Counted from the stretch's first letter, positions 14,967 to 52,030 are shown. The stretch is 64,000 nt of DNA from Clostridia bacterium (GCA_040772725.1 JAXGXR010000002.1:477635-541634), one strand, 5' to 3'. Translations and numbers: made by a program. Notes: generated from the letters alone by a model not told the origin.

Positions 14967-14982
14967 GGGTGTTGAATGTGGG

Positions 14983-15023: not shown

Positions 15024-15485
15024 GGTCGTTTCGCTCCTTTCGTAGAGTGTCTTGAGCCTTGCTCAAATGTCGAATGATGCTTGAAAGGGAAATAAAAAAG
15101 CACGTTCAATCAAGTGATCGTTTGTGGCTGCTGCTGGCGTATAGTCGCCTGCCGCGGCCCGATCCCTTGATTGTCCATGCCTGTCACCGGTGCTTCCGGT
15201 GTCACGCGATCAACAATTCAAGTGATGATGTATTTTCAAAAACGAACGGTCATTTCTGCTTGCGCAATTACCGATACCGATATTTGAATGATAACATTGT
15301 CAGCGTAAAATATCAATATATTTCTGATGGTTTATTTATACTATACGTATAATGACATCATGTTAAAAGATACATGAACTGAATATGGTCATAAGTGCAT
15401 CAGGGTTATTTCTGGTTTTTCGCCAATCGATTTTCCAACTGTGGATGGATTTCAGCGAGCCACGAATCAGGGTCTGCTAACAGAA

Positions 15486-15932: not shown

Positions 15933-15997
15933 GTGCAGGCCTCCGATTTCGCTTATAATAATCCCATTATAGCAAGGATTCGTCAGGAGTACCGTCT

Positions 15998-16408: not shown

Positions 16409-16464
16409 GGTGGGAGAATTCCAATTCAGTTTCAGGATTATTATTATCGTATATTTGACTATGT

Positions 16465-17466: not shown

Positions 17467-17539
17467 ATTTATAGTCATTCCTTTCGCTACGCTCAGGCAC
17501 AAAAAGTCATTAAAATACTGCACCAGGCGTGATATTATT

Positions 17540-19150: not shown

Positions 19151-19187
19151 TTCACGTCTCCCTTTCGACCTATGTCTATTATATCAA

Positions 19188-19221
19188 GAATGGAGCCACC
19201 GCCGAAGCGATGGCCCCATTC
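19188..19221 (-). terminator. Hairpin downstream of the giant surface-protein gene (GAATGGGGCCATCGC-TTCG-GCGGTGGCTCCATTC on the minus strand)
   Basis: 15-bp stem with two mismatches or wobbles, about 30 nt after the stop. The U-tract is weak (TTGATAT). Confidence 0.45.
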
Positions 19222-19249
19222 TCAGAGAATCAGATGTTTTTCTGAGTAA

Positions 19250-22200: not shown

Positions 22201-23683
22201 CGGTGACGGTAACCTCCGAGAAGGTGTAGTCGCCAGGGACCAGGCCGCATACGATATCGTCCCAGCCATTGCCTTCGTTAAGCGTGACGGAACCGGTGTA
22301 GCCATAAGGACCGGTGATGTTGACGGTGACAGAGGCTGGCAGCGGGTATCCTGCGGGATAGCCCGTGAAAGACTTGACGATCTTCAGGCAGCCCTTGTCG
22401 AGGGTGTTGGTGATGGTGCCGATGGCACCGGCGGCAGGCTCAGTACCGGCCACGACAGTCAGGACACGGTTGGTCGGGTTGTAGGCGGGTGTCCAGCCGG
22501 TGACGGTAACCTCCGAGAAGGTGTAGTCGCCAGGGACCAGGCCGCATACGATATCGTCCCAGCCATTGCCTTCGTTAAGCGTGACGGAACCGGTGTAGCC
22601 ATAAGGACCGGTGATGTTGACGGTGACAGAGGCTGGCAGCGGGTATCCTGCGGGATAGCCCGTGAAGGACTTGACGATCTTCAGGCAGCCCTTGTCGAGG
22701 GTGTTGGTGATGGTTAAATCTACATTCTGCTCTGCAATAACAGTTACTGGGCCACTATTGCTGACGGTCGTCCAGCCTTCTACATCTCGCTCAGTGGCTG
22801 TATATAGACCGGGCTCTAGATCGCAGATCTGTACCGACCAGCTATTCCCACTGTTTAGAACGACCGTAGTAGAAAATTCGTTTGGACCACTAACATCAAC
22901 TGTTACTTCTGGTAACGTAAAGCCTTCTGGATATCCACTGAATGCCTTCTTGATTGTCAAGCATCCAGTCTCGTATACCTCAACACCCCATTCTTCAAAG
23001 CCGTCATTTGTGTCATTGTGCTCTGTAAAGAGAACTACAAAAATACCGTCTTTTCCGTTGAACTTTGTTTGAGGTACCAATACCCTGTATTCACGTTTAC
23101 CACTTCCATCGTTGTATAAAAGTTTTAGGGTGGTTCCAGCTGTGTCATATACCAAATCAGCGTCAGGAAGTGTATAGGAAGCTAGCGAGTATCCAGTTGG
23201 GCTTTGAATATCTGTAACCCATACCTGAAAACGAGTCAAATAAATTGAATCGTCATTTTCGTTGATATCTAGCTGAAACTCCCTATACGCGACACCTCCA
23301 ACATAAATAGTTGGTACATCAGCCAACAACTGAGAATCTGTGAAACTATCCTTTTCGTCAAAGTAGGGGGTTTGATCGCCATTATGGCCTCTCTCACTAC
23401 CAGTCGCTTGTACCCGTAGGAAAGAATCAAATACACCCGTACCAGTAGCACTTGTATGAGGCACCAGGTTCTCCCAGATAGCTCCATTGACGGTTGCTGT
23501 TGATCCGGGTGTCATGAGATCAACTTCAGCTGCAAATACACCCGTCGATGACAACGCAAAAACCGCCATCACAATGATGGTGACAATCATGCTTCGCCAA
23601 AGACGGCTTGAGGTCTTGGTTACGTTCACTTTACATCCCTTTCTTTCTTCTAGTGCGCCGATCGATTTGCGCACTTTGTTCAT
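19250..23683 (-). CDS. Giant secreted repeat protein: signal peptide, N-terminal domain, 1 diverged plus 10 identical Cna-B-like 99-aa domains, and a conserved C-terminal domain
   Basis: 1,477-aa ORF. Signal peptide is SMIVTIIVMAVFALSSTGVFA. No LPXTG, SLH or choline-binding anchor was seen. A GTG at 23629, preceded by AAGGGA, is an alternative start; the ATG at 23683 lacks an obvious RBS. Confidence 0.85.
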   Translation of the reverse strand: MNKVRKSIGALEERKGCKVNVTKTSSRLWRSMIVTIIVMAVFALSSTGVFAAEVDLMTPGSTATVNGAIWENLVPHTSATGTGVFDSFLRVQATGSERGHNGDQTPYFDEKDSFTDSQLLADVPTIYVGGVAYREFQLDINENDDSIYLTRFQVWVTDIQSPTGYSLASYTLPDADLVYDTAGTTLKLLYNDGSGKREYRVLVPQTKFNGKDGIFVVLFTEHNDTNDGFEEWGVEVYETGCLTIKKAFSGYPEGFTLPEVTVDVSGPNEFSTTVVLNSGNSWSVQICDLEPGLYTATERDVEGWTTVSNSGPVTVIAEQNVDLTITNTLDKGCLKIVKSFTGYPAGYPLPASVTVNITGPYGYTGSVTLNEGNGWDDIVCGLVPGDYTFSEVTVTGWTPAYNPTNRVLTVVAGTEPAAGAIGTITNTLDKGCLKIVKSFTGYPAGYPLPASVTVNITGPYGYTGSVTLNEGNGWDDIVCGLVPGDYTFSEVTVTGWTPAYNPTNRVLTVVAGTEPAAGAIGTITNTLDKGCLKIVKSFTGYPAGYPLPASVTVNITGPYGYTGSVTLNEGNGWDDIVCGLVPGDYTFSEVTVTGWTPAYNPTNRVLTVVAGTEPAAGAIGTITNTLDKGCLKIVKSFTGYPAGYPLPASVTVNITGPYGYTGSVTLNEGNGWDDIVCGLVPGDYTFSEVTVTGWTPAYNPTNRVLTVVAGTEPAAGAIGTITNTLDKGCLKIVKSFTGYPAGYPLPASVTVNITGPYGYTGSVTLNEGNGWDDIVCGLVPGDYTFSEVTVTGWTPAYNPTNRVLTVVAGTEPAAGAIGTITNTLDKGCLKIVKSFTGYPAGYPLPASVTVNITGPYGYTGSVTLNEGNGWDDIVCGLVPGDYTFSEVTVTGWTPAYNPTNRVLTVVAGTEPAAGAIGTITNTLDKGCLKIVKSFTGYPAGYPLPASVTVNITGPYGYTGSVTLNEGNGWDDIVCGLVPGDYTFSEVTVTGWTPAYNPTNRVLTVVAGTEPAAGAIGTITNTLDKGCLKIVKSFTGYPAGYPLPASVTVNITGPYGYTGSVTLNEGNGWDDIVCGLVPGDYTFSEVTVTGWTPAYNPTNRVLTVVAGTEPAAGAIGTITNTLDKGCLKIVKSFTGYPAGYPLPASVTVNITGPYGYTGSVTLNEGNGWDDIVCGLVPGDYTFSEVTVTGWTPAYNPTNRVLTVVAGTEPAAGAIGTITNTLDKGCLKIVKSFTGYPAGYPLPASVTVNITGPYGYTGSVTLNEGNGWDDIVCGLVPGDYTFSEVTVTGWTPAYNPTNRVLTVVAGTEPAAGAIGTIINTLVYHDETAWAYGGARATRFTTLADLQSNNWGWTNDIGTGDIDETWVLYAGAAQEDLTKGFDVGTLHVVRTGTTLTITFNTSFCNDLLATHLWVGKDKLPKKGKKYINSPGQLEKYIKYSFTMERVDQDTVVYTFSDVKTTDNIWIAAHADVRMYCDYPD
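19741..22711 (-). repeat. Ten head-to-tail 297-bp coding repeats, essentially 100 percent identical
   Basis: The string TGCCGATGGC recurs at 19744, 20041, 20338 ... 22417, a period of 297. Both the sense and the antisense ORF translations are periodic and identical. The only interior difference noticed is a synonymous G/A at 22667. Confidence 0.95.
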
Positions 23684-23831
23684 ACCAAGAAAGGCATCTA
23701 TCGAACTTTTATCACTTGCTTACTGCATTCCAATCCGTTTCTGTTGTCTGCGTCCAATGATGCTGCACTGCGGTCCGATGAGCCAAATCAAGTGTCGATC
23801 CTCCAGTCCACATCACCCCCAAAACAAATAC

Positions 23832-23925
23832 AAAAACCGACCACAATGGGTCGGTTACGCTACTCGCTCCGGTCTGACCAAGCGTCCAGATACGGTCAAA
23901 CCCTCCTTGCACCCCGAAGGCTATT
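23832..23925 (-). ncRNA. c-di-GMP-II-like riboswitch aptamer plus intrinsic terminator (proximal copy)
   Basis: Minus strand: GGGGTGCAAGGAGGGTTTGACCGTATCTGGACGCTTGGTCAGACCGGAGCGAGTAGCGTAACCGACCCATTGTGGTCGGTTTTT. The core TGGACGC...GAGCGAGTAGCGTAACCGACC resembles, as I recall it, the c-di-GMP-II consensus (UGGGCAC...AGUAGUGCAACCGACC). The AACCGACC/GGTCGGTT stem plus U-tract forms the terminator. Confidence 0.65.
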
Positions 23926-24184
23926 CAGTTTTTGCCAAGGCTGGTTGTTCGAGTCTGTTTTCCGCTTTTTCTACCGCTTGCTCCCGCTCGTGGGGCGAAC
24001 CATGTTATGGGAGCGGCCGGGGTAACTGTCTATCTGTTTCATAGACGAAAAACCTTTGCCGCCACCGGCTGCAACCCCGTTAAACGGGGCAAGTCACCCA
24101 TTATAAAGACGCCAATAACGGCCGGGATCACCAATTTCTCAATAAATACCTGACCGTTTTTGCTGTCTTCGGGTTTAAAACAAT

Positions 24185-24270
24185 AAAACCGACCCGAAGG
24201 CCGGTTACGCTACTCGCTCTTGTCTGACCAAAGCGTCCAATCACAGTCAGACCATCATCGCATCCTGGCT
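24185..24270 (-). ncRNA. c-di-GMP-II-like riboswitch aptamer plus intrinsic terminator (distal copy)
   Basis: Minus strand: GGATGCGATGATGGTCTGACTGTGATTGGACGCTTTGGTCAGACAAGAGCGAGTAGCGTAACCGGCCTTCGGGTCGGTTTT. Same conserved core as the proximal copy. Stem positions show compensatory differences (GTCTGAC/GTCAGAC versus GTTTGACC/GGTCAGAC; ACCGGCC/GGTCGGT versus AACCGACC/GGTCGGTT). Confidence 0.65.
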
Positions 24271-24344
24271 ATACTTTTATGAATTTTCACAAAATATTTC
24301 GATTGCTTCATGCGTTATTTGATAACTTTGTCCTTACATAATCT

Positions 24345-24353
24345 ATTATAACA
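24345..24353 (-). promoter_or_regulatory. Candidate extended -10 promoter element (TGTTATAAT) for the riboswitch-led transcript
   Basis: Minus strand reads GGGTGTTATAATAGA about 75 nt upstream of the distal aptamer, in an AT-rich region. No good -35 was found. Confidence 0.35.
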
Positions 24354-24562
24354 CCCGTTTGTCATCTGATTGTAAAATAATAATGAATAACTAAATGAAT
24401 ATTGCCTATCTATATTCAACATATGTGCAATTTCGCATTTGTCACGAAATTTAAAAAATTAGTCATGATATTTGTCATCAAAACCTGGCCGTCACCGGAT
24501 CTGATTCGACAATTTCACTGTTTGACCACTGGTTCTGTACGATTTCACGCATACATGATTTC

Positions 24563-25474
24563 ATGCATAATAGAAGCATCAAAGGGAGGGGGTCAGCGCC
24601 AATCGATCAGGATCCGGACATCGTCTGGCTGGATGAGCAACTCGAGCGACGAGAACGGCTGCGTAGGCAATTGGTTCGTGTTATCGCCCTGGTGCTGGTC
24701 ATCGCGTTCATTCCGCTGGCGCTCAGCGGCGTGCTCTATCTGTTCGGCCTGCCATCGTTGCGGTTGCTGATCGAATCCCGCGAGTTGTCCAATGACCCGG
24801 CTTACAGTGCCCTCCGCTCAGCAGTCGTAGCAGTCCGTGCTGATCAGCGTCAGGGGACCGGGTTTGCGATACGAATGAATGATGAATCAGAAAGCGCCCC
24901 GCCATTGGCAGGAGGGGAAACCGCAAACCTGGAGGATACAAAGATCGTCATCCTCACCAATGACCACATCATCGGCGATGCCGAAAACGTCCAGGTCAGT
25001 TTGAAAGCTGACGATTTTCAACCCGTAAACGAGTGGCTGCAGTGGCCGCAGTCTGATCTGGCCATGATCTTATTGCCGCAACTTGACCTGCCCGCCGCCT
25101 TTTCAAAGCTGACAACGCTGACCCTGGCAGACAGTGCTGCCGAACCCGAGCCCGGCGACCCGCTCATCGTTATCGGCAATCCGCTCAATCTGTTCCAGAT
25201 CACGACCGAGGCCACATTCATTGGGCAGACCACATTATCCGGTATCAGCGGACCGGTCCTGATGATCAAAGGCCCTGTCTTTCGTGGTAATAGCGGAAGC
25301 CCGGTGATCGATGCGGAAAACCAGGTGATCGGCATGGTTTTTGCCGTCGCGGACACGGATCAGGCTGACCAGGGTGGCTTGCTGACCCGCGGCAGCATCC
25401 TGACCGCCGCCCAGGACCGGATCGCGTTCCTGATACCAGCCACGACGATCTGGGAGCAGGTGAACGAGCCGTAG
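24563..25474 (+). CDS. Membrane-anchored trypsin-like (S1C/HtrA-like) serine protease
   Basis: N-terminal TM helix (VIALVLVIAFIPLALSGVLYLF), catalytic Ser motif GNSGSPVID, and a His region NDHIIGD. The start codon is uncertain because no clear RBS precedes 24563. Confidence 0.7.
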   Translation: MHNRSIKGRGSAPIDQDPDIVWLDEQLERRERLRRQLVRVIALVLVIAFIPLALSGVLYLFGLPSLRLLIESRELSNDPAYSALRSAVVAVRADQRQGTGFAIRMNDESESAPPLAGGETANLEDTKIVILTNDHIIGDAENVQVSLKADDFQPVNEWLQWPQSDLAMILLPQLDLPAAFSKLTTLTLADSAAEPEPGDPLIVIGNPLNLFQITTEATFIGQTTLSGISGPVLMIKGPVFRGNSGSPVIDAENQVIGMVFAVADTDQADQGGLLTRGSILTAAQDRIAFLIPATTIWEQVNEP

Positions 25475-25794
25475 AAGACAAGAATATTAGCCCTGGATTT
25501 CCACCACGACATTCACGTGCCACCTCCAACATCCGTTTTCTGCCCGCCAACTGGTTTTCCCCGGAAGATTCATTAAAATAATATGAAACCGACCGGCAGG
25601 CTCCATAAGGTCGCCAGTTTTTTTACGCCACTCGATTAGTTTCATCCGGCTCAAACCCTCGTCAAAATGACGTAGAATCAAGCCTTGGCGGGGTTTCGTC
25701 TTGACGATATCAACCAAATGGAATAGGCTGGACATAGACCTGAAACTAAAATTTGATATTCAATTGATTCATCATATGAAGGGAGACCACGATC

Positions 25795-26199
25795 ATGGCG
25801 AAACTGAGCGTTGTGGAAGGCATTGGCGAATCCTATGAAGGCAAATTGAAAGAAGCAGGAATCACGTCCCTCGAAGCATTCCTCGAGCAATGCGCGACCA
25901 AGAAGAACCGGGCTGAACTGGCTGAGAAGACAGGCATTTCCGAGAAACTGATCCTGAAGTGGGTCAACCACGCCGACCTGATGCGCATCAAGGGCATTGG
26001 CGGTGAATATTCCGAACTGCTGGAAGCCGCCGGCGTCGACACCGTGCCCGAGCTGGCCAACCGCAAGCCGGAAAACCTCTTCGCTAAAATGGTCGAGGTC
26101 AACACCGAGAAAAAACTCGTCCGCAAGCTCCCCGTCGAGAAGCAGGTCGCCGGCTGGGTCGCCCAGGCCAAAGAACTGCCCAGAAAGCTCACCTACTGA
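25795..26199 (+). CDS. DUF4332-like helix-hairpin-helix protein
   Basis: 134 aa with two HhH-like repeats (VEGIGESYEGKLKEAGI; IKGIGGEYSELLEAAGV). GGGAGA RBS. Followed by a terminator. Confidence 0.65.
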   Translation: MAKLSVVEGIGESYEGKLKEAGITSLEAFLEQCATKKNRAELAEKTGISEKLILKWVNHADLMRIKGIGGEYSELLEAAGVDTVPELANRKPENLFAKMVEVNTEKKLVRKLPVEKQVAGWVAQAKELPRKLTY

Positions 26200-26564: not shown

Positions 26565-29500
26565 ATGCCAAATCGCAAAACCTTGACCCGCATATTGACT
26601 GTGATCCTCTGCCTGTCATTCGCACTGAGTGGCTGCAGTCACTTTGCCGATAACTGGACCAAGCCGATCGGCGTGACCGAAACGACGGCCAAGCAAACGA
26701 CCACTCAGTCTGGCCAGACCACAGCCCCGGCCCAGAAGACGCTGGTGATCTCCGAGGTCATGAGCAACAATGTCGGATCGCTCACCCTGCAGGACGGCAC
26801 GACACCTGACTGGATCGAACTGTACAACGCCGGTGACAAGGCCGTCAGCCTGACGGGGTACATGCTTTCGGACAACACCAAGAGACCGGATAAATATGTC
26901 TTCAAGACCGGCACCGTCCAGCCGGGCGCGGCCCTGCTGCTCTACGCTGGCGCGACGGATGAGGAAACGACCGGCGGCTCTACGCAAACCGGCGCGATCC
27001 AACTGCCGTTCGGCATCAGCAGCGCGGGCGAAGAACTGATCCTGACCGCACCGGACGGCAATGTCGCGGACCAGTGGACCATACCGGCCCTGCCGCCAGA
27101 CATCGCGTTTGGCATCCAGGGTCAAGACATAACATCTTCAGCCTCAAAAGTGTTTTTTGGCCACCCGACTCCCGGCAAGCCCAACGGCACTGATGGCAAG
27201 GCGACGGCGGATGCCGCGATCATCCCGGCGATCACGAGCTTGTTGATCAACGAGTATTGCACGCGCAACGCATCCTTTTATGATGAGGCCGGCGACTATC
27301 CGGATTGGGTCGAGTTGTACAACAGCGGTGACCAGCCACTCGACCTGAGCGGCTATTATCTCTCGGACGACCTGGCCAATCCGGAAAAATGGCAGTTCCC
27401 CCAGACCATTCTGGAGCCCAAATCCTACTTGCTTCTGATGCTCGGCGGAAAGATCCCGGGCACAGCAGACACTGAAGAGCCGCCCGCGACTGAAGGGCGC
27501 CTCCGGGTCGACTTCAGGCTTGGCACAGACGATACAAACCTGTTGATCAGCGACACCCGTGGCCGCACCGTCGCCAGCACTGAACTCGAGCACCTGCCGC
27601 TGAACGTCTCCAAAGGCCGCCTTCCGGACGATCCGGAAACGTGGGGCTATTTCCCCAAGGCGACGCCGGGCCAGCCGAACACGACCGTTTCGTTCCCGAC
27701 CCTGGCCCTGGCCAACTCACAGGCGAGCCGCACACTTTTCATCAGCGAGGTCTTCGCCCAGGATGGTGTCAACACCGCAACCCCTGTAAAAGACTGGATC
27801 GAGCTGTACAACAACACCAACGAAGTCATCAACCTGTCGGGTTATGGCCTGAGTGACAGCAGCAACGATCCGTTCCGGCTGACTTTGGCCGACCTGACGA
27901 TCAATTCCAAAAGCACGGTGGCCGTCGAACCGGACACTTTTTCCATATCGGCCGGTGGGGAGACGATCCTGCTGACCAACCCGGCCGGCATCATCGAGGA
28001 CGCGTTCGCGACCGGCTACCTGAGGCCCGGCGCCAGCAGCGGCCGCCAGATCCAGGCAGACGGAGCAGGCGGCCTGGACCGTTTTTTTTATTTGACCCCG
28101 ATGAAAAACGAGGTCAATACATCAACGGCGTATCGGACCTATACATCCATGCCGGAAATTTCAGCCAGGACTGAGACGAATAGCGAAACGTCAGACAATC
28201 TCTATATCAACGGCCCGGTCCAGGTCTCGATCGAGACGGCCATGCCGGACGCGAAAATTTACTATACGCTGGACGGGCGGACCCCCACGGCCGGTTCCAC
28301 CCGCTACCAGGGTACGTTTCGTGTCGACCGCTCACTGGTCGTTCGGGCGGTCGCCATCGCTCCGGCCTGCCTGCCGAGCGATGTCACCAGCCGGACCTTT
28401 CTCAAGGAAACCCCGCACACCCTGCCGGTCGTCAGCCTCACCGGCAATCCGGCCCAGCTGACCGGGGCAGCCGAGGGGATTCTCGCCAGTCAGACATCGA
28501 CTGCGGAGATGCCGGCGACGTTTGCCTTCTATGAAACGGATGGCCGTCTGGGCATCGACTTCAACGTCGGCCTGCAGCTGCACGGCCAGTTCAGCAAACG
28601 GGAGGACCAGAAGTCGCTCGAGGTGAAGATCCGCTCCTCCTACGGCGACAGTGAAGTGACCTATCCGTTTTTCGAGGACTACGATGTGTCGACCTTCAAG
28701 CGGCTCATCCTGCGCACCTCCGGACAGGACTGGAAGATGACCAAGGTGCGCGACGCGTTCATGACCCGGGTGGTCATGGGCCATGTCGAGCTGGACTGCA
28801 TGGCGATCCGCAACTGTATCCTCTACGTCAACGGGGAGTATTACGGTCTCTATGAAATCCGCGAAAAACTCGACCAGTTCTACGCCGCCTCGCACTTCGG
28901 CGTCGACCCGGACAAGGTCGACCTGATCAAAGGCACCTCGGCTGTCGTGTCCGGCAGCAACGCTGACTACAAGGAACTGATCGCCTACACCAAAGCGCAC
29001 AGTATGAACGACCCGGTCGCCTACAAGAGGGTCCTCGACTGGGTGGACGAAGAGAGCCTGATGGACTTTGTCATCGTCCAGTCGTTCTTCAGCAATCCCG
29101 ACTCGGGCAACAAGAAATTCTGGCGCCCGGCTGTCGAGGGCGGTGAGTACCGATACATGTTGTTCGACCTCGACTGGGCGATGTTCCCGTCAACCTACGA
29201 GCGCGACCGCCTCAAGGGCGACCTGCTCGACCCGGCCGGCCACGGCCAGGGCAATTTCTTCAGCACGACCCTGCAAGTCAAGCTGATGGAAAATCCCGAA
29301 TTCGAGAAAAAATTCGTCGAGCGTTACGCCAATTTCCTCAACACGATTTTCGAGACGGACCGGATGCTTCGGATCCTGGATGAGAGTGTCGCGATCGTCG
29401 AGCCGGAGATGGCGCGCCAGATCGCCCGCTGGGGCCAGCCGTCAAGCATCAACTCCTGGAAGAACATGGTGGGTACGCTGCGCCGGATCACCAGTGAAAA

Positions 29501-29588
29501 GCGGGATCTGATGATCGCCAGCCTGCAACAGAATTTCAATTTGAGCCAGTCGCGGATGAAAGAGCTGTTTCCGGAGGATTTCCGATGA
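26565..29588 (+). CDS. CotH-family atypical kinase lipoprotein with three lamin-tail (LTD) domains and a chitobiase/hexosaminidase-C-like domain
   Basis: Signal peptide plus lipobox (LSFALSGC). Three LTD repeats (ISEVMSNN...DWIELYN, INEYCTRN...DWVELYN, ISEVFAQD...DWIELYN). AKIYYTLDGRTP motif. C-terminal CotH region (LILRTSGQDW, LYVNGEYYGLYEIREK, KKFWRP). Confidence 0.8.
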   Translation: MPNRKTLTRILTVILCLSFALSGCSHFADNWTKPIGVTETTAKQTTTQSGQTTAPAQKTLVISEVMSNNVGSLTLQDGTTPDWIELYNAGDKAVSLTGYMLSDNTKRPDKYVFKTGTVQPGAALLLYAGATDEETTGGSTQTGAIQLPFGISSAGEELILTAPDGNVADQWTIPALPPDIAFGIQGQDITSSASKVFFGHPTPGKPNGTDGKATADAAIIPAITSLLINEYCTRNASFYDEAGDYPDWVELYNSGDQPLDLSGYYLSDDLANPEKWQFPQTILEPKSYLLLMLGGKIPGTADTEEPPATEGRLRVDFRLGTDDTNLLISDTRGRTVASTELEHLPLNVSKGRLPDDPETWGYFPKATPGQPNTTVSFPTLALANSQASRTLFISEVFAQDGVNTATPVKDWIELYNNTNEVINLSGYGLSDSSNDPFRLTLADLTINSKSTVAVEPDTFSISAGGETILLTNPAGIIEDAFATGYLRPGASSGRQIQADGAGGLDRFFYLTPMKNEVNTSTAYRTYTSMPEISARTETNSETSDNLYINGPVQVSIETAMPDAKIYYTLDGRTPTAGSTRYQGTFRVDRSLVVRAVAIAPACLPSDVTSRTFLKETPHTLPVVSLTGNPAQLTGAAEGILASQTSTAEMPATFAFYETDGRLGIDFNVGLQLHGQFSKREDQKSLEVKIRSSYGDSEVTYPFFEDYDVSTFKRLILRTSGQDWKMTKVRDAFMTRVVMGHVELDCMAIRNCILYVNGEYYGLYEIREKLDQFYAASHFGVDPDKVDLIKGTSAVVSGSNADYKELIAYTKAHSMNDPVAYKRVLDWVDEESLMDFVIVQSFFSNPDSGNKKFWRPAVEGGEYRYMLFDLDWAMFPSTYERDRLKGDLLDPAGHGQGNFFSTTLQVKLMENPEFEKKFVERYANFLNTIFETDRMLRILDESVAIVEPEMARQIARWGQPSSINSWKNMVGTLRRITSEKRDLMIASLQQNFNLSQSRMKELFPEDFR

Positions 29589-30535
29589 AAAAGCATGACC
29601 GCCCGCCGCAAGAACTCGCTCGCAAACCTGCGCCCGTGCATCATCCTGCTGACCAGACGACCGCGCCGTCCCCGGAGCCAAGCGTGGTGATCCCGGATAC
29701 GCTGCGCTCCGCGCCGGTCCGGCAGAAACACGGCAAGCCGATCGAGCGGCCGCAGAAAATCTGGCGTCATGAGGACAAATATCTGCTGGACGAGTATTCG
29801 TTCACCCGGCTTTACTGGCAGCTTCGGCCATTTGTCGGGCTCGACCGGCATGCCGAGACGGACGGATGGCTGGGTGATCCGGCAGGCCTCGATGAGATCC
29901 CGGGTCTCGCGACCGACGCCCAGTATCCCGGCTACCAGGTCAAAAGCCTCTACTTTGACACGATCGGCCGGCACGGCCTCTTTGAAAAGCTGGCCGGCAT
30001 CGACCAGCGGTTCAAATACCGTGTCCGCATTTATAATAATGGTGATCATGTCATCCACCTCGAGAAAAAGATGAAACGCAACCAGTACTGCCTCAAGAGC
30101 AGTATCCCGATCTCCCGGTCGCAACTGGATGCGTTGCTGGCCGGCGATGCGGAATGGCTGCTCGAGGCCGGCCCACCGGGCACGGACCTGTATACGGAGA
30201 TGCGGACCCGCCTGATGAAACCGCTCGTCCTGGTCGACTATCACCGGATCCCGCTGATCTGGCCGGCTGACGAGATCCGCATCACCTTTGACAGCCACCT
30301 CTCGACCGGACTGTTCCGGACCGACCTGTTCGAGGAACACGCGGCGATGCACCCGGTGCTGTCACCCGGCCAGGTGATCCTTGAGGTGAAATACAACCAC
30401 TTCCTGCCCGATTTTTTAAACGCGCTGCTCTCCCAATCCGGCGCGATGCCCGTCTCCCTGAGCAAATACGCCATGTGCTGCCGCGAGATCAGCTTTGCCA
30501 GCTGGTCCGACCCGCAGGACACCCTGGATGATTGA
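29585..30535 (+). CDS. VTC-domain (polyphosphate polymerase catalytic tunnel domain) protein
   Basis: The start overlaps the cotH stop (ATGA). HEDKYLL...VKSLYFDT...RVRIY...LEKK...LEVKY pattern of alternating basic and acidic beta-strands is typical of VTC/CYTH tunnel domains. Confidence 0.7.
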   Translation: MKKHDRPPQELARKPAPVHHPADQTTAPSPEPSVVIPDTLRSAPVRQKHGKPIERPQKIWRHEDKYLLDEYSFTRLYWQLRPFVGLDRHAETDGWLGDPAGLDEIPGLATDAQYPGYQVKSLYFDTIGRHGLFEKLAGIDQRFKYRVRIYNNGDHVIHLEKKMKRNQYCLKSSIPISRSQLDALLAGDAEWLLEAGPPGTDLYTEMRTRLMKPLVLVDYHRIPLIWPADEIRITFDSHLSTGLFRTDLFEEHAAMHPVLSPGQVILEVKYNHFLPDFLNALLSQSGAMPVSLSKYAMCCREISFASWSDPQDTLDD

Positions 30536-44700: not shown

Positions 44701-47529
44701 ATGGATCACTTTGACGACACAGTGGCGCAAGACCACCGGAATGAGGTGAAAAAGCCCCGGACCAATCGTTCTGCCGGCATTCACGTACCATTGGCCGAAA
44801 CAGCCGTGCTCGTGATTCTGCTGTTGCTTGGCTTGCTGGCTGTGATCGGCGCCAGGGTCGTTTCCGATCGCCTGGAACCCGGCTTCCCAATCAGCAGGGA
44901 ACTAAACCCGGCTGGGATAACCCGTGTCCTTTCGGCAGATCAGGCCCGTGCGCTCATGACTGAGGCGTCGTTGCTGCGTGGAGCGGACGGACAGTCTTTT
45001 CCCTCGATTGAATGGGCGGACCTGCTTCAAACAGATCCGAACGCACTGGGCATTTTTCTTTTGCGTTCCCTCACGACGGTCGATTACCTGAGCCAGCAAA
45101 AGGATGACGTGCAGTTTGCCCGGGATGTCCGGGTGCTTCTGGAGGCTGCCGGATCGGAACGATTGCTGGACGAGGGCACGTTGCCGGCGGACCCGATGCT
45201 GTCTGATGCAGGGGGTGAGACTGGCGGTGCTTCAGATGATCCCCCGCGCCAGACTCGGGTCGCCTGGCTCAGACAGGCGGTTCTGACCGCAGGTTTCAGC
45301 CCGGACGGGCTGGGCGAAGCGCCGCCCTTGACCGGCCATCTGGAAACGATGGCGACTACTGGCCTTGTTCCGGAATCGGGCGACACCCTCGTCGGCTCCA
45401 GGTCTGTGTCAACCGTTGTCGACATCAAGCCGGACCCCGCGCTTGCCAACAAAGAATCCTGGTTCGCCGGGATCCTTGGGTCGTCTGATCGGTCGATGCC
45501 CCTGACCATCCGGCAGGTGCTGTATCTGGACGGACAGGTTCTGGCTGCCAGTCCGGTCATCACTGCTGTCAGCCCACAAAGCGAATTCATCCTGACGATG
45601 GATGTTCGCCACCAGGCATCCGGCACCTATCAGGCTCGTCTGCTTGCCCTGGGCTGTGATGGTCGGGGCGTTTACCGGGAAATCGGGAGCATCAGGATAC
45701 CGGAGGTTTTCGAGCTGGGCGCGGGGGATGTCAGGAAGATGTCGCTTGAACCGGATGCAAAGGACTTGTATGTCTCCATTCCTGCGGACACATCTGGTAC
45801 CAGACCCTTTTACGCCCTGACGGTCGTCCGGCCGGACGCCCCTGTTGCCGCCGAACTCTTCGATATCGATGGCACATTGATTGCCCATTCGGACAATCCG
45901 GATGACCAGTGGGAAGCACTTCGGGGCTTCGGGTCTGAAGTCCCGAGCGTCGCTGAGGACATGCCTGCCGATGGCTCAGGGCATTTCCCGATCCAGGAGC
46001 CTGCGTCGCAGGACTTTGCAGCCTATGCCCGGCTGCTTCGCCCGGACCGTGAGGCCACAGAAGGGCAAGGGATCCGATTCACGCTCGTTCAATCCGTAGA
46101 GGTTGCATGCGACAACTCCAGTCCGGATACAATCTATGCTGTCATGGGGAGGAATGAGACCGGCCTGGAGCTGAAAGGCACTGACGGACAGGTGTACACG
46201 CGACCTCAAGCGGATGTCAGGCTCATCGACCTCGCGGCACGCCTGTCAGATCTTGAGCTTATCGCGGCGGGCAGACCGGTTGACCTGTATCCGGTGTTTG
46301 ACCCGGAGGTGGATCGGTACGGCCTTTACCTGCCATCCGGCATGGATGTGATCACGTTGGATGCCTGGGCCAGCGAAGGCAGTTTTTCCAATATCGCGAT
46401 CGTTCATGAACAAGAGGGCCGGCCGCCCACGCCCCGGGATCCCGGGGATCCATTCGCGCTTCAGGGCGGTGAGCAAACGCTTGCCATCACGGTCACGAAC
46501 AAACTGGGGGCGACCCGGACTTACCGATTGCATGTGCTATTGCCAGCCCAGGATCAGACGGGTTATCACACGGTGCTGGAGTCCTTTCCGGAGAGCTACC
46601 GGTCCGCCCTTTATCTGATGCATGTGAAACAGCCGCATTATGTGTTCAAGGCACTGCAGACTGACCTGACCTTCGATGAATTTGTCGACGCTCAGACCTT
46701 TCAGGACCGGAGCCTGGTGGATGCCGCCCACGCTCCGGAAAGCTGGGTGGTGCCCGGCAGTCCCGTGTATGACGGCAGATCCTGGAAAGCGGCAAGCCAT
46801 GATGTCGTGGCGTACTTTGCCGACCCGCGCAATTTCCTCAATGAGCAGGACCTGTTCCAGTTTGAAACGCTGTCTTTTGATGCCACGACACAAACCCTGG
46901 CTGCGGTTCAAGCGATGCTGGCCGGCACATTCATGGCCCCCGATCATGAAAAGGCCCAGGCTGGTGTCGACTATGCCGGACTGGTCATGCGGGCTGCGGA
47001 ACAGGCCGGGATCAGCCCGCTGTTCATCGCCGCCAAGATCATCCAGGAGATGGGGCGAAACGGAGAATCCCCACTGGCGTTCGGCCAGCTGCCGGGATAC
47101 GAGGGTGTCTACAATTTTTTCAATATCGGCGCGACACCCGATCCGGCTGTGCAGGATGGAGCCCGGATCAACGGGGCGCGGTTCGCCTTGTATGGGCGCA
47201 GCCCGGATGAGCGGGAAATCACAGCCGATGAGGAAGCGATCCTTCTGCCCTGGACGACACCCGAAAGGGCCATCATCGGGGGGGCGACATGGATCGCGCG
47301 CGGCTACATCGCCATCGGCCAGGACACCCTGTACCTGCAAAAATTCGATCTGGTTTCCGAAGACGGACTTTTCATCCACCAGTACGCGCAGAACATCCAG
47401 ATGGCCTGGGCTGAAGGACGAAGGACCTACCGGGCCTATCAGGACATGGGTCTGCTGGACAGGGCCTTCTCCTTCACGATCCCGGTGTTCCGCGATATGC
47501 CGACACAATGGCCTGAATTACCGTCCTGA
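44701..47529 (+). CDS. Large membrane-anchored protein: unknown N-terminal region, cadherin-like beta-sandwich, GH73-like N-acetylglucosaminidase domain
   Basis: TM anchor AVLVILLLLGLLAVIGA. Cadherin-like segment (YGLYLPSGMDVITLDAWASEG...TRTYRLHV). The C-terminal domain (IAAKIIQEMGRNGESPLAFG...YNFFNIGA...LYLQKFD) is paralogous to the next gene. Confidence 0.7.
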   Translation: MDHFDDTVAQDHRNEVKKPRTNRSAGIHVPLAETAVLVILLLLGLLAVIGARVVSDRLEPGFPISRELNPAGITRVLSADQARALMTEASLLRGADGQSFPSIEWADLLQTDPNALGIFLLRSLTTVDYLSQQKDDVQFARDVRVLLEAAGSERLLDEGTLPADPMLSDAGGETGGASDDPPRQTRVAWLRQAVLTAGFSPDGLGEAPPLTGHLETMATTGLVPESGDTLVGSRSVSTVVDIKPDPALANKESWFAGILGSSDRSMPLTIRQVLYLDGQVLAASPVITAVSPQSEFILTMDVRHQASGTYQARLLALGCDGRGVYREIGSIRIPEVFELGAGDVRKMSLEPDAKDLYVSIPADTSGTRPFYALTVVRPDAPVAAELFDIDGTLIAHSDNPDDQWEALRGFGSEVPSVAEDMPADGSGHFPIQEPASQDFAAYARLLRPDREATEGQGIRFTLVQSVEVACDNSSPDTIYAVMGRNETGLELKGTDGQVYTRPQADVRLIDLAARLSDLELIAAGRPVDLYPVFDPEVDRYGLYLPSGMDVITLDAWASEGSFSNIAIVHEQEGRPPTPRDPGDPFALQGGEQTLAITVTNKLGATRTYRLHVLLPAQDQTGYHTVLESFPESYRSALYLMHVKQPHYVFKALQTDLTFDEFVDAQTFQDRSLVDAAHAPESWVVPGSPVYDGRSWKAASHDVVAYFADPRNFLNEQDLFQFETLSFDATTQTLAAVQAMLAGTFMAPDHEKAQAGVDYAGLVMRAAEQAGISPLFIAAKIIQEMGRNGESPLAFGQLPGYEGVYNFFNIGATPDPAVQDGARINGARFALYGRSPDEREITADEEAILLPWTTPERAIIGGATWIARGYIAIGQDTLYLQKFDLVSEDGLFIHQYAQNIQMAWAEGRRTYRAYQDMGLLDRAFSFTIPVFRDMPTQWPELPS

Positions 47530-47718
47530 TTGGTCGGATTCCCCAAACTTCACCAAACTGGAAATCGTCTGTAATGATCCGGCTGGAAAACCGTGCTATG
47601 ATAAAATCCGCACGACTGTCCGCCTCGATGGACGAGTGACCATTCTCGTCCGGCAAGGTTTTTCACCCGCATGCCGGGTTGCCGTGATTCGGCAATCTCA
47701 GGAAAGGATTGTCAAGCT

Positions 47719-50007
47719 TTGTTGACCAGTCGACCCGGTTCGCCGGAAAGCAAAACGTTCTTCAGGATGCTGGCCATGCTGCTCATCATGGCTTTCATCA
47801 TCATGCCGTTTATCCTGACTGCTGTCCGGTCGCCGGTCCTGGCCGATGACTATGCCGGAAGGACCGGTACGGTTGTCGTGGTGAGCGCGCACGTCCGTCT
47901 GGATCCAGCCGTTTCATCGGACAACATCCTGACCACGGTCTACCAGGGCCAGCGCGTCACCATCCTGCAACGGGTCGTGGGCGGCGAGACATCCGAGTAC
48001 GGTCCGGAATGGTATGAAATCCGGTTCACCAAGGACAGTCAGGAAATGACCGGCTTCATCGTCGATGATTTCGTCGTGCTCGACCCGGTCGCCACACCTG
48101 CGTCGACGGAGCCGACTGCGGTGATCACCGACCCGGATTTCGAAGCCATCCTGGATGGCGAGCGGTTTCCGGACAGCTACCGGCCTGGGCTTCGCCAGCT
48201 GCATGACCAGTATCCCGACTGGATTTTCAAGGCGGTGCACATCGACCTCGATTGGGAAACGATCATCAGCCAGGAAAATTATCCCGGTCGTAGCCTGATC
48301 CATGAGTCGTTCGACGACAACTGGAAATCGCTCGACGCGGAGGCCTATGACTGGCGGACCGATACATGGGTCCCCTACGACAGCGACGAATGGATCATGG
48401 GCAGCAAGGAGACCATCGCGTATTATCTGGATCCGCGCAACCGGTTGGACGATCGGCGGATCTTCATGTTTGAAAATCTGGAATATCAGCCGGATGTCCA
48501 GACCGGCGAGGGGGTCATGGCCATCCTGGCCGGCACGTTCATGGAAGGTCGGGAGGTCGTGTTCGAGGATCCGGATGACGGCACTGAAAGGACCATGCCT
48601 TATCCGGAGGTGTTCATCGAGGCCGCCCGGTACGCCAATGTCAGCCCGTATCATCTGGCGGCCAGGGTTCGTCAGGAGGTAGGCACGGATGGCAGCCGTT
48701 CCGTAACCGGCGAGCCTTTTGTCGATCCGGTCGATGGCCTGACCTACGAAGGATATTACAACTTCTACAATATCGGCGCGTCGCCGCCCAACAGCATTGA
48801 ACGCGGTCTGCGCTATGCCCGGGTCGGATCGATCAGCGAAGACTTCAACGGATTGATCCGGATTCCCTGGACCGACCCTTTTGCAGCCATAACGGGTGGA
48901 GCCTTCTGGATCGGCAGCAATTACATCCATGTCGGTCAGAACACGCTCTATTTCCAGAAGTTTGATGTCATCGACAATACCGGCGACAGCAAGCACCTGT
49001 ACTGGCACCAGTACATGACCAACCTGGCCGCACCGGATGCCGAATCCGCTCAGATCGCCGACGCGTATGCCGCCTATGGCATCGCCTCGGCAGCCAAGAC
49101 CTTCCTGATTCCTGTGTACCGGAACATGCCGGAGGCCGCTGCGCCGCAGCCGACCTCGTCCGGCAATCCGAACAATTGGCTGAAACAACTGACGATCAAT
49201 GGGCATTCGCTCACACCGACTTTTGATGGGGCGGTCACCGACGGATACATGATGATCGTGGACCATCAGGTCACGACCGCTTCGGCCACGGCGACACCCG
49301 TGTCCGAAAAAGCCACCGTCGCCAGCGGGAAGGATGTGCCTCTTGCCGTCGGGTATAACCCGGTCGACATCACAGTCCAGGCTGAAAACGGATCGGAGCG
49401 GGTCTATACGGTCACGGTGACCCGTCGCGATGAAGATGGCGGCACGCCAACGGAACCACCACCAGTATCGACCCCGGCCCCGACCCCTGCAGCCACACCG
49501 GCCCCGTCCGTGACACCGTCTCCGGAAATCACGCCGACACCGACGGTAGCGCCCACGCTCCCGGCCAGTCCGGAACTGGATCCGGTGGCCCTCAGCAGCA
49601 CCACCTATGCCATCAGCCCGGACAGGCGGATTACCGGTATCGCGCCGGAATGTCCTGTATCGGTTTTCATAGAGAACCTCTCCGTCACGCAAGGTTACCA
49701 GATGATGGTGGTCGACCCATCCGGTGCAGTCCTGACCGGTCTGGTCGGTTCCGGCACCCGCGTCCGGGTCCAGAACGGATCCATCGTGGAAAGCGAGTAT
49801 CGCACGGTGCTATTCGGTGACACGAACGGCGATGGCAAGATCAATGTCCTTGATCTGACCCTGATGTCCAGGCAGGTGACCAGAAGGCTGAGCCTGGAGG
49901 ATGTTTTCGTGGTCAGCGCGGATGTGAACCGGGATAGCCTGGTCAACGTCCTGGACTTGACACTACTGTCCAGACATATTACGAAACGGAGCACCATCAG
50001 CCAGTGA
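47719..50007 (+). CDS. Secreted peptidoglycan hydrolase: SH3b-like, GH73-like glucosaminidase, cadherin-like beta-sandwich, Pro/Thr linker, C-terminal dockerin
   Basis: LAARVRQEVGTDGSRSVTG...YNFYNIGA...LYFQKFD glucosaminidase region. Dockerin duplicated Ca-binding loops are DTNGDGKINVLDLTLMSRQV and DVNRDSLVNVLDLTLLSRHI. The start is uncertain: TTG at 47719/47722 after GGAAAGGA, the track start at 47671, or the ATG at 47767. Confidence 0.75.
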   Translation: MLTSRPGSPESKTFFRMLAMLLIMAFIIMPFILTAVRSPVLADDYAGRTGTVVVVSAHVRLDPAVSSDNILTTVYQGQRVTILQRVVGGETSEYGPEWYEIRFTKDSQEMTGFIVDDFVVLDPVATPASTEPTAVITDPDFEAILDGERFPDSYRPGLRQLHDQYPDWIFKAVHIDLDWETIISQENYPGRSLIHESFDDNWKSLDAEAYDWRTDTWVPYDSDEWIMGSKETIAYYLDPRNRLDDRRIFMFENLEYQPDVQTGEGVMAILAGTFMEGREVVFEDPDDGTERTMPYPEVFIEAARYANVSPYHLAARVRQEVGTDGSRSVTGEPFVDPVDGLTYEGYYNFYNIGASPPNSIERGLRYARVGSISEDFNGLIRIPWTDPFAAITGGAFWIGSNYIHVGQNTLYFQKFDVIDNTGDSKHLYWHQYMTNLAAPDAESAQIADAYAAYGIASAAKTFLIPVYRNMPEAAAPQPTSSGNPNNWLKQLTINGHSLTPTFDGAVTDGYMMIVDHQVTTASATATPVSEKATVASGKDVPLAVGYNPVDITVQAENGSERVYTVTVTRRDEDGGTPTEPPPVSTPAPTPAATPAPSVTPSPEITPTPTVAPTLPASPELDPVALSSTTYAISPDRRITGIAPECPVSVFIENLSVTQGYQMMVVDPSGAVLTGLVGSGTRVRVQNGSIVESEYRTVLFGDTNGDGKINVLDLTLMSRQVTRRLSLEDVFVVSADVNRDSLVNVLDLTLLSRHITKRSTISQ

Positions 50008-50026
50008 TCCGCAAAGGAGCGATAGA

Positions 50027-51547
50027 ATGAGATATCCATACGGCAAGCGGGCAGCATCGCTGCTCATCCTGTTGGCGATGCTATTGACCATGGCCTCGCC
50101 GGTGTTCGCGGCCGCCACCGTCCGCCTTGAATTGAGCGCGGACAGGATCGCGATTGGCAAAACCCTCACGATCGAGGTGAAAGTGGGCAGTGGTGTGCCG
50201 GATCTGTCATCCGTCGGTTTTGACATGACATTCGACGCGAACGCGTTTTCGTTTGTATCCGGGTCGGTCAACGGGACGGCCAAGGGTGACAACAAGGCCA
50301 GCTTCACCCTGCAGGGCACGGATGTCATCCAGTTGACGGCAGCGGACTATCTGTTCGACACGGACAGCGACCCTCTTCTGGCCACCTTGCAGTTCAAAGC
50401 CAAGGCTGCGAGTGCCGGCTCTGCGTTCACCCTGGAGAACATCGTGCTCGGAGACTACACCGAGTCGGTCAATCCGGTGCCGGCCACCTTTGCCGGAGCC
50501 CAGAGCGTTATCTTCTTCCAGCCGTCCACCAATGCCGACCTGAGCCAACTGGTCATCGAACCCGGCACACTGGAACCCGCCTTCACCCCCGCCAATACCG
50601 TATACAGCGTCCAGGTTCCGGAAGGCGTCAACGCGCTGACAATCGATGCCCTGCCCGCCGATGACAAGGCAAAAGTGTCTGTCAGCGGACACACCGGGCT
50701 GCAGGACGGCGAAAACACGGTCAAGGTGGTTGTCACGGCCGAAAGCGGCGCGACCAAGACCTACACGATCAAGGCCATCAAAGCGACGCCATCCCCGACG
50801 CCGGAAGCGACACCGACACCGGCTGCCACCGTGACGATCGACGGTGCTGTTTTCACGGTCCAGTCGATTGGAGACGATCAGACACCACCGCCCGGTTTTG
50901 CTGCGACCACCACCATGCTCTCCGGACAACCCGTGCCGGCATATGTGGACAGCCGGTTGAACCTGCTCCTGCTTTATCTGGCAGACAGCGCGGGCAATCA
51001 GGATTTCTTCCTGCTGGACACCCGGACGGAAAAGCTCAGTCTGTATCGTACGCTGACCATCCCGGCCATTACCTACACCGTGCTGGACGCGGATCCGACC
51101 CAGAACGCGCCGGAAGGCTTTGTACCGGCTGAAGTGATGGTCGGCGGCCATTTTGCCAAGGGCTTCAGCGAGGCCACGGCCGGGTCGGATGGCCAGAAGC
51201 AGACCCTGGTGTACCTTCAGGACGCGACCGGTCGGAGAGACCTGTACACTTTTGACGCGACGTCCGGCCAGGTGACGCTTTTTTCCGGCTTGCAGGAAAC
51301 ACCGGTGGCCACGGTGACCCCCGTTCCGACTGTAAGTGCCACACCGACCCAGGCCGCCACGATCACGCCGGGTCTTTCGATCGATCCTGACGCGGACGGG
51401 GATTCCGGCCTGGATCGTTATCTGCTCATCATCCTGATCCTCGGTTTCATCGTCTTGGTCCTGGCCGGAATCCTGACCTACCTGCTGATGGCGAGAAAAG
51501 CCTATCATCGGAATCAGGAAACACCGGTGATCCGGCGGATCCGATGA
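50027..51547 (+). CDS. Type I membrane protein with an N-terminal cohesin domain, a cadherin-like beta-sandwich, an unknown domain and a C-terminal TM anchor
   Basis: Signal peptide ending SPVFA. Cohesin-like segment is VRLELSADRIAIGKTLTIEVKV...VGFDMTFDANAFSFVSG...LATLQFKAK. Cadherin-like segment is NADLSQLVIEPGTLEPAFTP...KTYTIKAIK. C-terminal TM helix is LLIILILGFIVLVLAGILTYLLM. Confidence 0.75.
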   Translation: MRYPYGKRAASLLILLAMLLTMASPVFAAATVRLELSADRIAIGKTLTIEVKVGSGVPDLSSVGFDMTFDANAFSFVSGSVNGTAKGDNKASFTLQGTDVIQLTAADYLFDTDSDPLLATLQFKAKAASAGSAFTLENIVLGDYTESVNPVPATFAGAQSVIFFQPSTNADLSQLVIEPGTLEPAFTPANTVYSVQVPEGVNALTIDALPADDKAKVSVSGHTGLQDGENTVKVVVTAESGATKTYTIKAIKATPSPTPEATPTPAATVTIDGAVFTVQSIGDDQTPPPGFAATTTMLSGQPVPAYVDSRLNLLLLYLADSAGNQDFFLLDTRTEKLSLYRTLTIPAITYTVLDADPTQNAPEGFVPAEVMVGGHFAKGFSEATAGSDGQKQTLVYLQDATGRRDLYTFDATSGQVTLFSGLQETPVATVTPVPTVSATPTQAATITPGLSIDPDADGDSGLDRYLLIILILGFIVLVLAGILTYLLMARKAYHRNQETPVIRRIR

Positions 51548-51565: not shown

Positions 51566-52030
51566 ATGCGTGAGATCCTCGCGACATCGGCCCTTCCGGG
51601 CCTTCTGGGCTTCCTGCTTAGCCGGGAAGTGATCCTGTACCTGATTTTCGGCGTGTTGACCACTCTGGTCAATCTTGTTATCTTCACCATCCTGTCGCGA
51701 TTGTTCGGCAAAGACCGCTGGTACCTGTCCAACGGGCCGGCCATCGTGCTCGCCATCCTGTTCGCCTTCGTCACGAACCGCGGCATTGTTTTCCAGTCGA
51801 CCGGCCCCTGGTTTCCCGAGATGATCAAATTCTTCGCCTCCCGGATCCTGGTCTCGGTCGCGTTCGAATATGGTGGCATGTATTTCTTCTACAACCTGAT
51901 GAAACTCAAGTCCGGTCTCAAGATCGGACGCTTTGAACTGTCCTACGCCAAGCTACTCGTCCAGGTCCTGGTGGTCGTGGGCAATTATGTCCTCAGCAAG
52001 TGGTTCATCTTTACAGGCGGTGGGGCATGA
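51566..52030 (+). CDS. GtrA-family membrane protein
   Basis: Four TM helices, and LIFGVLTTLVNLVIF ... NYVLSKWFIF, which is typical of GtrA-like proteins. Confidence 0.75.
   Translation: MREILATSALPGLLGFLLSREVILYLIFGVLTTLVNLVIFTILSRLFGKDRWYLSNGPAIVLAILFAFVTNRGIVFQSTGPWFPEMIKFFASRILVSVAFEYGGMYFFYNLMKLKSGLKIGRFELSYAKLLVQVLVVVGNYVLSKWFIFTGGGA

Follow-up and report, generated by a model that had tools for sequence, protein, structure and literature searches.

Organization of the locus

The window analysed here is a 64,000-nucleotide (nt) stretch of the genome of a Clostridia bacterium (GCA_040772725.1, JAXGXR010000002.1:477635-541634) in which a putative cohesin-dockerin pair is encoded by two neighboring genes, one for a predicted peptidoglycan hydrolase that carries the dockerin and one for a membrane-anchored protein that carries the cohesin. 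The hydrolase gene consists of a longest open reading frame (ORF) of 778 amino acids (aa) at 47671-50007 and is followed by the gene for the cohesin anchor protein (506 aa, 50027-51547); a gene encoding a 942-aa paralogue of the hydrolase is located upstream (44701-47529). All three ORFs lie on the plus strand and match their description in the original prediction, which was generated by a model from the sequence of the window.

The hydrolase ORF opens with an ATG at 47671, whereas translation from a TTG at 47719 yields a protein of 762 aa and the version chosen by the gene caller has 743 aa. A sequence resembling a ribosome binding site, AGGAAAGGA, was recognized by eye 10 nt before TTG 47719, and initiation at this codon provides the hydrolase with a signal peptide that ends in VLA/DD; TTG 47719 is likely the start of the gene. 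The length of 778 aa originally assigned to this protein holds when it is counted from ATG 47671 and does not match the start at 47719 with which it had been combined. The intergenic stretch of 189 nt located 5' of the hydrolase gene (47530-47718, plus strand) contains TGCTATGAT, an extended -10 candidate that, as read by eye, may be part of a promoter. The hydrolase stop codon and the anchor start codon are separated by a gap of 19 nt, with GGAG positioned 7 nt ahead of the anchor ATG, and no terminator-like site was found between the two genes, which represent a co-inherited and probably co-transcribed cassette.

The hydrolase and its upstream paralogue

From N- to C-terminus, the hydrolase contains an SH3b-like beta domain (residues ~65-137, 47863-48081), a GH73-like catalytic domain that was recognized by sequence and by fold and is extended at its N-terminus (residues 154-488, 48130-49134), a cadherin-like beta-sandwich matched by Pfam (PF12733, residues 504-586, 49180-49428), a Pro/Thr-rich linker predicted to be disordered (49465-49590; predicted local distance difference test score, pLDDT, <50), a small beta module, here called X, that is conserved across the family and modeled with a pLDDT of ~90 (49591-49806) and, immediately after it, a type I dockerin supported by Pfam and by its fold (49807-50004), all on the plus strand. 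The SH3b assignment is based on a weak Pfam SH3_3 match at residues 82-121, under the cut-off in this protein and above it in the orthologue of locus L002, as well as on the beta strands of the model and a Foldseek match of this region to the SH3 structure 2krs. The series of modules first proposed for this protein (SH3b, GH73-like, cadherin-like, Pro/Thr linker and dockerin) is thus supported by profiles, by matches to solved structures and by folds.

The GH73 profile of Pfam, PF01832, which the original prediction had suggested as a check, matched neither the hydrolase nor any other sequence in a six-frame search of the whole genome. Conversely, residues 310-483 match the solved glucosaminidases SagB (6fxp/6u0o), Atl (6fxo), Acp (5wqw) and AtlE (4pi7) in phmmer searches (E 4e-6 to 4e-3), and the NCBIfam model of SagB matches the protein with an E of 2e-8, which is far under its equivalog cut-off. 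In the AlphaFold2 (AF2) model of the hydrolase (pLDDT 81.6), the 13 Foldseek matches obtained at E <= 1e-3 were all GH73 enzymes, LytB among them. Glu336 (in RQEVG; codon at 48676-48678) aligns with the catalytic Glu of the LLETG motif of SagB, Atl and Acp, and the hydrolase motif HQYMTN, which places Tyr448, aligns with HQYATD. Judging from sequence and model together, the hydrolase is a GH73-type enzyme with predicted N-acetylglucosaminidase activity.

The 942-aa paralogue is a type II membrane protein with an N-terminal transmembrane (TM) helix at residues ~33-55, followed by ~450 residues without assignment, a weak, sub-threshold Cadherin-like match (residues 531-612) and a GH73-like domain (residues 623-935) that is 35% identical to that of the hydrolase over 337 residues (E 6e-55). 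Its Glu783 (IQEMG; 47047-47049) falls on the Glu of LLETG and its HQYAQN on HQYATD, and no dockerin was detected in the protein. The paralogue therefore has the features attributed to it beforehand, namely the same hydrolase and cadherin-like modules, a TM anchor of its own and no dockerin; since the cadherin-like domain stands ahead of the GH73-like domain, the swapped domain order is also correct.

The dockerin

The search with the Dockerin_1 profile (PF00404), which had also been proposed as a check, gave a match at hydrolase residues 716-770 whose score of 41.9 bits exceeds the curated cut-off (22.9). The module is composed of two repeats, each with an EF-hand-like 12-residue loop followed by a helix; the calcium loops, DTNGDGKINVLD and DVNRDSLVNVLD, are 34 residues apart (loops were defined by D/N at loop positions 1, 3, 5, 9 and 12, in repeats of ~22 residues). 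In the model the dockerin forms three helices and superimposes on the dockerin of Clostridium thermocellum Xyn10B (1ohz_B/2ccl_B) with a TM-score of 0.93-0.94, a root mean square deviation of 0.7 Å and 45% identity.

The positions usually involved in recognition (10, 11, 17 and 18) are occupied by V, L, S and R in either repeat. This symmetry extends to other lineages: the two helices are NVLDLTLMSR/NVLDLTLLSR in the window, NVIDKTVISR in both repeats of L003 and YTLDYIRIKK/DTLDYIQVKK in L004, so that the identity between the two helices of one dockerin at positions 10-22 (0.79) contrasts with that between lineages (0.38). Such a pattern is as expected if both helices were selected for one lineage-specific partner, and it fits a dockerin with a dual binding mode whose two faces track that partner.

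The cohesin anchor protein

The anchor protein begins with a signal peptide that ends in VFA/AA, followed on the plus strand by a cohesin module defined by family profile and fold (residues 29-168, 50111-50530), a cadherin-like beta-sandwich (residues 172-250, 50540-50776; pLDDT ~94) that is the sole Pfam match in its 506 aa, a beta-rich domain here called D3 (residues 265-420, 50819-51286; model and family profile), an acidic, Pro/Thr-rich membrane-proximal linker (51287-51406; pLDDT <50) and a C-terminal segment (51407-51544) in which the model and TM prediction place a TM helix (~461-490) and a short basic cytoplasmic tail ending in PVIRRIR. The signal peptide, cohesin-like domain, cadherin-like domain and single C-terminal TM helix initially described for this protein are borne out by the profiles and the AF2 model; the third domain, D3, had not been mentioned. 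As delimited in the model, the cadherin-like sandwich spans residues 172-252 and D3 residues 268-418.

A profile built from the anchor family matches cohesins of solved structure along the entire module (2vn5, 1g1k, 5nrm, 3l8q and 2jh2; E 2e-8 to 1e-4), including C. cellulolyticum CipC (2vn5; profile positions 31-154 vs chain positions 11-149, E 6e-7), A. cellulolyticus ScaB and C. perfringens NagJ. In the AF2 model of the anchor (mean pLDDT 76.9), cohesin residues 30-165 reach a pLDDT of ~87-91, and the top domain-sized Foldseek matches are all cohesins, with TM-scores of 0.72-0.77 (normalized by the target) and a probability of 1.00. In addition, the cohesin profile of Pfam, PF00963, matches 9 of the 14 aligned anchor orthologues (best E 2.6e-8). 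By family profile and predicted structure, the module is a real cohesin with the nine-stranded jelly-roll fold.

D3 comprises two units of ~75 residues, an internal duplication with the pattern P.GF ... hhYL.D..G...hY.YD...G.h..F. Its profile had no match in Pfam or among the sequences of the Protein Data Bank, and the Foldseek search with the whole model was dominated by the cohesin. When D3 was used as a marker, 1,767 clusters at 50% identity were recovered (E <= 1e-10); among the top 150 representatives, D3 is preceded by a cohesin in 125, and the C-terminus is hydrophobic in 146. On this sequence evidence, the architecture cohesin-(cadherin-like)-D3-TM is that of a large coherent family. 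With regard to the cytoplasmic side, the motif P-x-IRR(V/I) (51488-51544) is common to close orthologues, and the tails of distant members are long and charged.

One cohesin and one dockerin in the genome

In the genome from which the window derives (2.74 Mb, 3 contigs, 99% complete), PF00404 detected exactly one dockerin and the family profile exactly one cohesin (E 1e-50, and nothing else at E <= 1); D3 likewise occurs once. Because there is one of each in a 99%-complete genome, the dockerin and the cohesin can be considered partners by elimination. The only GH73-type genes are those of the tandem formed by the hydrolase and the TM-anchored paralogue, which by sequence constitute the whole detectable glucosaminidase complement of the cell; together with the lack of any PF01832 match, this argues for a housekeeping role. 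No scaffoldin and no further dockerin-bearing enzymes were found in the genome.

Altogether, it is likely that the dockerin of the hydrolase binds the cohesin of its neighbor and thereby leashes a housekeeping glucosaminidase to the membrane of the cell that produces it, both the binding and the enzymatic activity being predicted. The original prediction had proposed that an autolysin is docked to a dedicated membrane cohesin for wall remodeling rather than for carbohydrate degradation, and all the genomic tests (counts, adjacency and the lack of a scaffoldin) agree with this proposal. Membership of a cellulosome or amylosome was considered as well and was rejected for a genome with one dockerin and one cohesin.

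The small number of glucosaminidases also bears on the possibility that the displayed hydrolase is a weapon that lyses the walls of competitors. Dockerins on putative lysozymes in rumen metagenomes have been discussed in terms of possible attack or defence (Bensoussan et al., 2017; PMC6487960), and the term "lyticome" was coined for such systems (Vermassen et al., 2019; PMC6403190). In the present case, however, the cohesin is borne by a TM protein beneath the cell's own wall and not by an outward-facing SLH or sortase-attached scaffold, no gene for immunity, toxin secretion or a scaffoldin is located beside the pair, and the module is near-universal and in single copy in the small genomes of the order. 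Moreover, if the only GH73-type enzymes of the genome were weapons, the cell would be left without a housekeeping glucosaminidase. A role in attack thus appears very improbable.

Conservation of the hydrolase-anchor pair

In the closest loci, L002 (55% identity) and L003 (38%), the whole ten-gene neighborhood is kept, including the TM-anchored paralogue. In distant relatives with ~25% identity, among them Parasporobacterium paucivorans DSM 15970 (a cultured organism), Roseburia sp. CAG:303, a Faecalimonas metagenome-assembled genome and several uncultured Bacilli and Clostridia, the neighborhoods are unrelated and only the hydrolase-anchor pair is kept. When the architectures were scored with home-made domain hidden Markov models (HMMs) in the distinct loci with a visible upstream gene (n=14), the order SH3-GH73-(cadherin-like)-X-dockerin followed by cohesin-cadherin-like-D3-TM was observed in 13. 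The hydrolase architecture is no less common than that of the anchor: its best matches include more than 100 clusters at 90% identity, one of which has 3,825 member sequences. At the distant locus L006 (186-3875) the pair lies directly behind genes connected with peptidoglycan, namely those for a polysaccharide deacetylase, a diaminopimelate epimerase and an LD-carboxypeptidase (Peptidase_S66).

The survey was extended to 121 genomes sampled evenly from the order to which the genome of the window belongs. A cohesin of the anchor type was detected in 33 of these genomes, at 37 places, and at 35 of the 37 the same strand encodes a dockerin at a distance of 100-320 bp upstream; of the two remaining places, one is cut by a contig end. 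Dockerins are present in 77/121 genomes, 62 of which have exactly one, and these lone dockerins typically belong to ORFs of ~690-830 residues. The only genome of the sample resembling a multi-enzyme system is G067, a member of the same family as the genome of the window, which has 45 dockerins and presumably encodes a genuine cellulosome- or amylosome-like system.

Several results weigh against the pairing proposed above, and some of them speak for an alternative in which the two genes would be adjacent without their products binding each other, with the dockerin binding another ligand or being a calcium-stabilized module and the cohesin-like domain binding, for example, a wall polymer. PF00963, the profile suggested in the original prediction for testing the cohesin, did not match the window's cohesin at E <= 1, either in the protein or in a six-frame search of the genome; the cohesin is divergent, since the window's own sequence falls under the detection limit of Pfam. 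At locus L020 (1-3768) the hydrolase ends after the cadherin-like domain and no dockerin was found in any frame, and the anchor retains its cohesin-like tip; likewise, at the second of the two remaining cohesin places, in genome G116, no dockerin was detectable, so that in both cases one partner appears alone. Evidence of co-evolution from a mirror-tree comparison was discarded: the divergence of dockerins and cohesins in 12 pairs is correlated (Mantel r 0.74, partial r 0.39-0.44), but control domain pairs score equal or higher (e.g., cohesin vs GH73 given D3, r 0.51), and the signal, being unspecific and no stronger than in the controls, adds nothing beyond shared descent. Finally, the disordered linkers of both proteins, ~40 residues each, make any fixed positioning of the enzyme loose.

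These observations have to be set against the presence of one dockerin and one cohesin in the genome of the window, the adjacency of both at 35/37 places in the order sample, the canonical folds of the two modules and the symmetry of the dockerin helices, which is maintained in every lineage. In view of the one-to-one counts and the conserved adjacency in particular, adjacency without binding is a most unlikely explanation. With respect to the profile searches, the direct misses of PF00963 and PF01832 taken alone would have led to the finding being wrongly dismissed, and it was the family profiles and the folds that rescued both assignments.

A related layout was noticed at loci L023, L027, L034, L037-L040 and L044, which encode dockerin proteins without GH73; the protein encoded directly after each of these has between two and four cadherin-like repeats in addition to an unassigned N-terminus of ~150 residues, and one such downstream ORF has 1,912 aa (5'-open at the locus) and 19 cadherin-like repeats. 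The N-termini of these downstream proteins did not match the home-made cohesin HMM. The arrangement of a dockerin protein followed by an anchor may thus be used for further kinds of cargo and receptor tip as well.

A proposed mechanism for tethering the hydrolase

Based on the available evidence, a mechanism can be proposed in which the hydrolase would be exported by the Sec pathway and its dockerin would join the cohesin of the neighboring protein in a calcium-dependent manner. The complex would be located on the outer face of the membrane of the producing cell, under its own wall, a placement suggested by the fact that the anchor ends in a TM helix and not in a sortase or SLH signal. In the anchor, a type I membrane protein by its architecture, the N-terminal cohesin would be held off the membrane by the cadherin-like domain, D3 and the flexible Pro/Thr linker, and the SH3b and cadherin-like modules of the hydrolase may contact peptidoglycan, allowing the GH73 domain to cut its glycan strands during growth, division or cell separation. 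The upstream paralogue would perform related work from its fixed N-terminal TM anchor, as SagB does in Staphylococcus aureus. Since both proteins contain disordered Pro/Thr linkers, the tether would act as a leash that limits the range of the enzyme rather than as a rigid ruler.

A refinement of this mechanism is that the anchor acts as a regulator, which by way of D3 and its cytoplasmic tail would link the glucosaminidase to the machinery of wall synthesis or division, or turn it on and off, in a way comparable to SpdC-SagB or to FtsEX and its hydrolases. D3 is conserved throughout the family, has no known relatives and is always adjacent to the membrane, the tail motif P-x-IRR(V/I) is shared by close orthologues, and SagB itself depends on its membrane partner for the length of its products. 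Conversely, the motif is lost in the long charged tails of distant members, no divisome or elongasome gene is conserved beside the pair outside close relatives, and nothing ties D3 to any partner. A regulatory anchor is regarded as improbable, and the present data are compatible with it and with simple tethering without separating the two.

Returning to the leash, a broader reading may be put forward to which we give a small, though appreciable, chance. According to it, all the wall glucosaminidase activity in this lineage is tethered to the membrane, one enzyme by a TM helix and its paralogue on a detachable, calcium-dependent joint, and the D3 domain of the stalk represents a fold family not seen before. 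Each of the two enzymes would then have its own depth or time of action, for instance the release of nascent strands near the membrane and the trimming of outer layers or the splitting of the septum, with the docked enzyme linked to the synthesis machinery through D3 and the tail. If this dual tethering were true, the docking of autolysins would be the commonest use of the cohesin-dockerin interaction in gut Clostridia, far above cellulosomes.

Other features of the window

Downstream of the anchor gene there are genes for a GtrA-like protein, a FolC-like protein, a TPR membrane protein and ThrC. They are spaced by 18, -31, -4 and 26 nt, and due to this close spacing a longer transcript is possible. 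The first of them encodes a small membrane protein (51566-52030, 18 nt past the anchor gene) and keeps its position in L002 and L003, not in distant loci. On the other side, a YfbR-like gene is located 3 nt ahead of the gene for the 942-aa paralogue.

A SigI-like gene with a weak Sigma70_r2 profile match (2701-3477) and an RsgI-like gene whose product contains RsgI_N and RsgI_M, by profile, and an unassigned C-terminal sensor region of ~220 residues (3477-4598) lie 43 kb upstream of the hydrolase-anchor pair. The presence of a SigI/RsgI pair in the window, noted in the original prediction, is correct, and no support was obtained for the link, described there as circumstantial, to the cohesin-dockerin pair: apart from the distance, inspection by eye revealed no SigI-type motif in 47530-47718, nor any shared with the region upstream of SigI, no validated consensus being available for this lineage. 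In Bacillus subtilis, SigI/RsgI senses wall defects and drives the expression of lytE and mreBH (PMC7478892, PMC9732909). By analogy, if a link with SigI exists, the apt precedent would be the control of lytE in B. subtilis and not the regulation of cellulosomes.

Elsewhere in the window, an ORF at 26565-30535 encodes a secreted-looking protein of 1007 aa with three lamin-tail domains, Fn3_assoc/CHB_HEX_C and a CotH kinase domain, and overlaps the start of a gene for a VTC-domain protein. The region 13200-26000 has a lower G+C content (0.48-0.51 vs ~0.58, interrupted by one bin at 0.61) and may be an acquired island; it includes an ORF resembling a DUF4277 transposase (13236-14966) and, on the minus strand, a gene for a 1477-aa repeat protein (19250-23683).

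Comparison with known systems

Non-cellulosomal cohesin-dockerin pairs are well established in the glycoside hydrolases of C. perfringens and in the amylosomes of Ruminococcus bromii. The cohesin of C. perfringens NagJ (GH84C; 2jh2, 2w1n, 2ozn) is the best structural match to that of the window, and both systems employ the interaction outside plant cell wall degradation and in a pairwise assembly. The C. perfringens pairs join secreted enzymes acting on host glycans to each other, whereas the pair described here would fasten a peptidoglycan hydrolase to the cell's own membrane anchor. OlpA of C. thermocellum (3ul4), which ranked 22 among the fold matches, exemplifies a single type I cohesin on a surface protein that receives the dockerin of a single enzyme. 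In contrast with the TM anchor and the exactly one dockerin found in the genome of the window, systems of the OlpA type have an SLH anchor outside the wall and dozens of dockerins per genome.

On the enzymatic side, SagB (6u0o) provides the closest solved catalytic domain both by sequence and by fold. SagB is a membrane-held GH73 enzyme with a membrane partner, SpdC, which is needed to set the length of its products (bioRxiv 10.1101/2020.05.21.109470). The predicted complex resembles SagB-SpdC in having a GH73 glucosaminidase at the membrane together with a membrane partner, and the 942-aa paralogue resembles SagB in carrying an N-terminal TM anchor. The two arrangements differ in that SagB relies on a helix of its own for anchoring and is oriented by SpdC, an eight-helix CAAX-like protein, whereas the anchor of the window is a single-pass stalk with a cohesin-dockerin joint and long flexible linkers. 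No gene for a polytopic CAAX-like or SpdC-like protein adjoins the pair, the search being confined to the neighboring genes.

The placement of wall hydrolases in Gram-positive anaerobes is poorly known beyond Bacillus, Staphylococcus and Streptococcus, and the cassette points to a simple, modular solution found very commonly in gut Clostridia. Lone dockerins and cohesins found in genome surveys could be read as a device for wall maintenance and not as the vestige of a cellulosome. Given the small size and self-contained nature of the pair, and its occurrence in at least one cultured strain, P. paucivorans DSM 15970, the hypothesis is directly testable. In addition, the lineage-specific variants of the dockerin and the cohesin are possible orthogonal protein connectors.

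Modules of this kind have already been noticed in the literature, which limits the novelty of the finding. In Ruminococcus bicirculans a lone cohesin and a dockerin "associated with a GH73 enzyme" were mentioned (Wegmann et al., 2014, as cited by Ze et al., 2015; PMC4611034); as far as this one-sentence description goes, the R. bicirculans pair is very probably the same module. The account, as conveyed by the citing paper through which the original is known, is a genomic remark without domain anatomy, membrane anchor, distribution or experiment, and our literature search found no work on the membrane-anchored partner of the pair, its distribution or experiments with it. What the window adds is the description of tandem cis-anchored and trans-anchored paralogues as the only GH73-type enzymes of a genome, together with the definition of D3 as a duplicated, family-specific domain and the quantification of the lone-dockerin pattern in the order.

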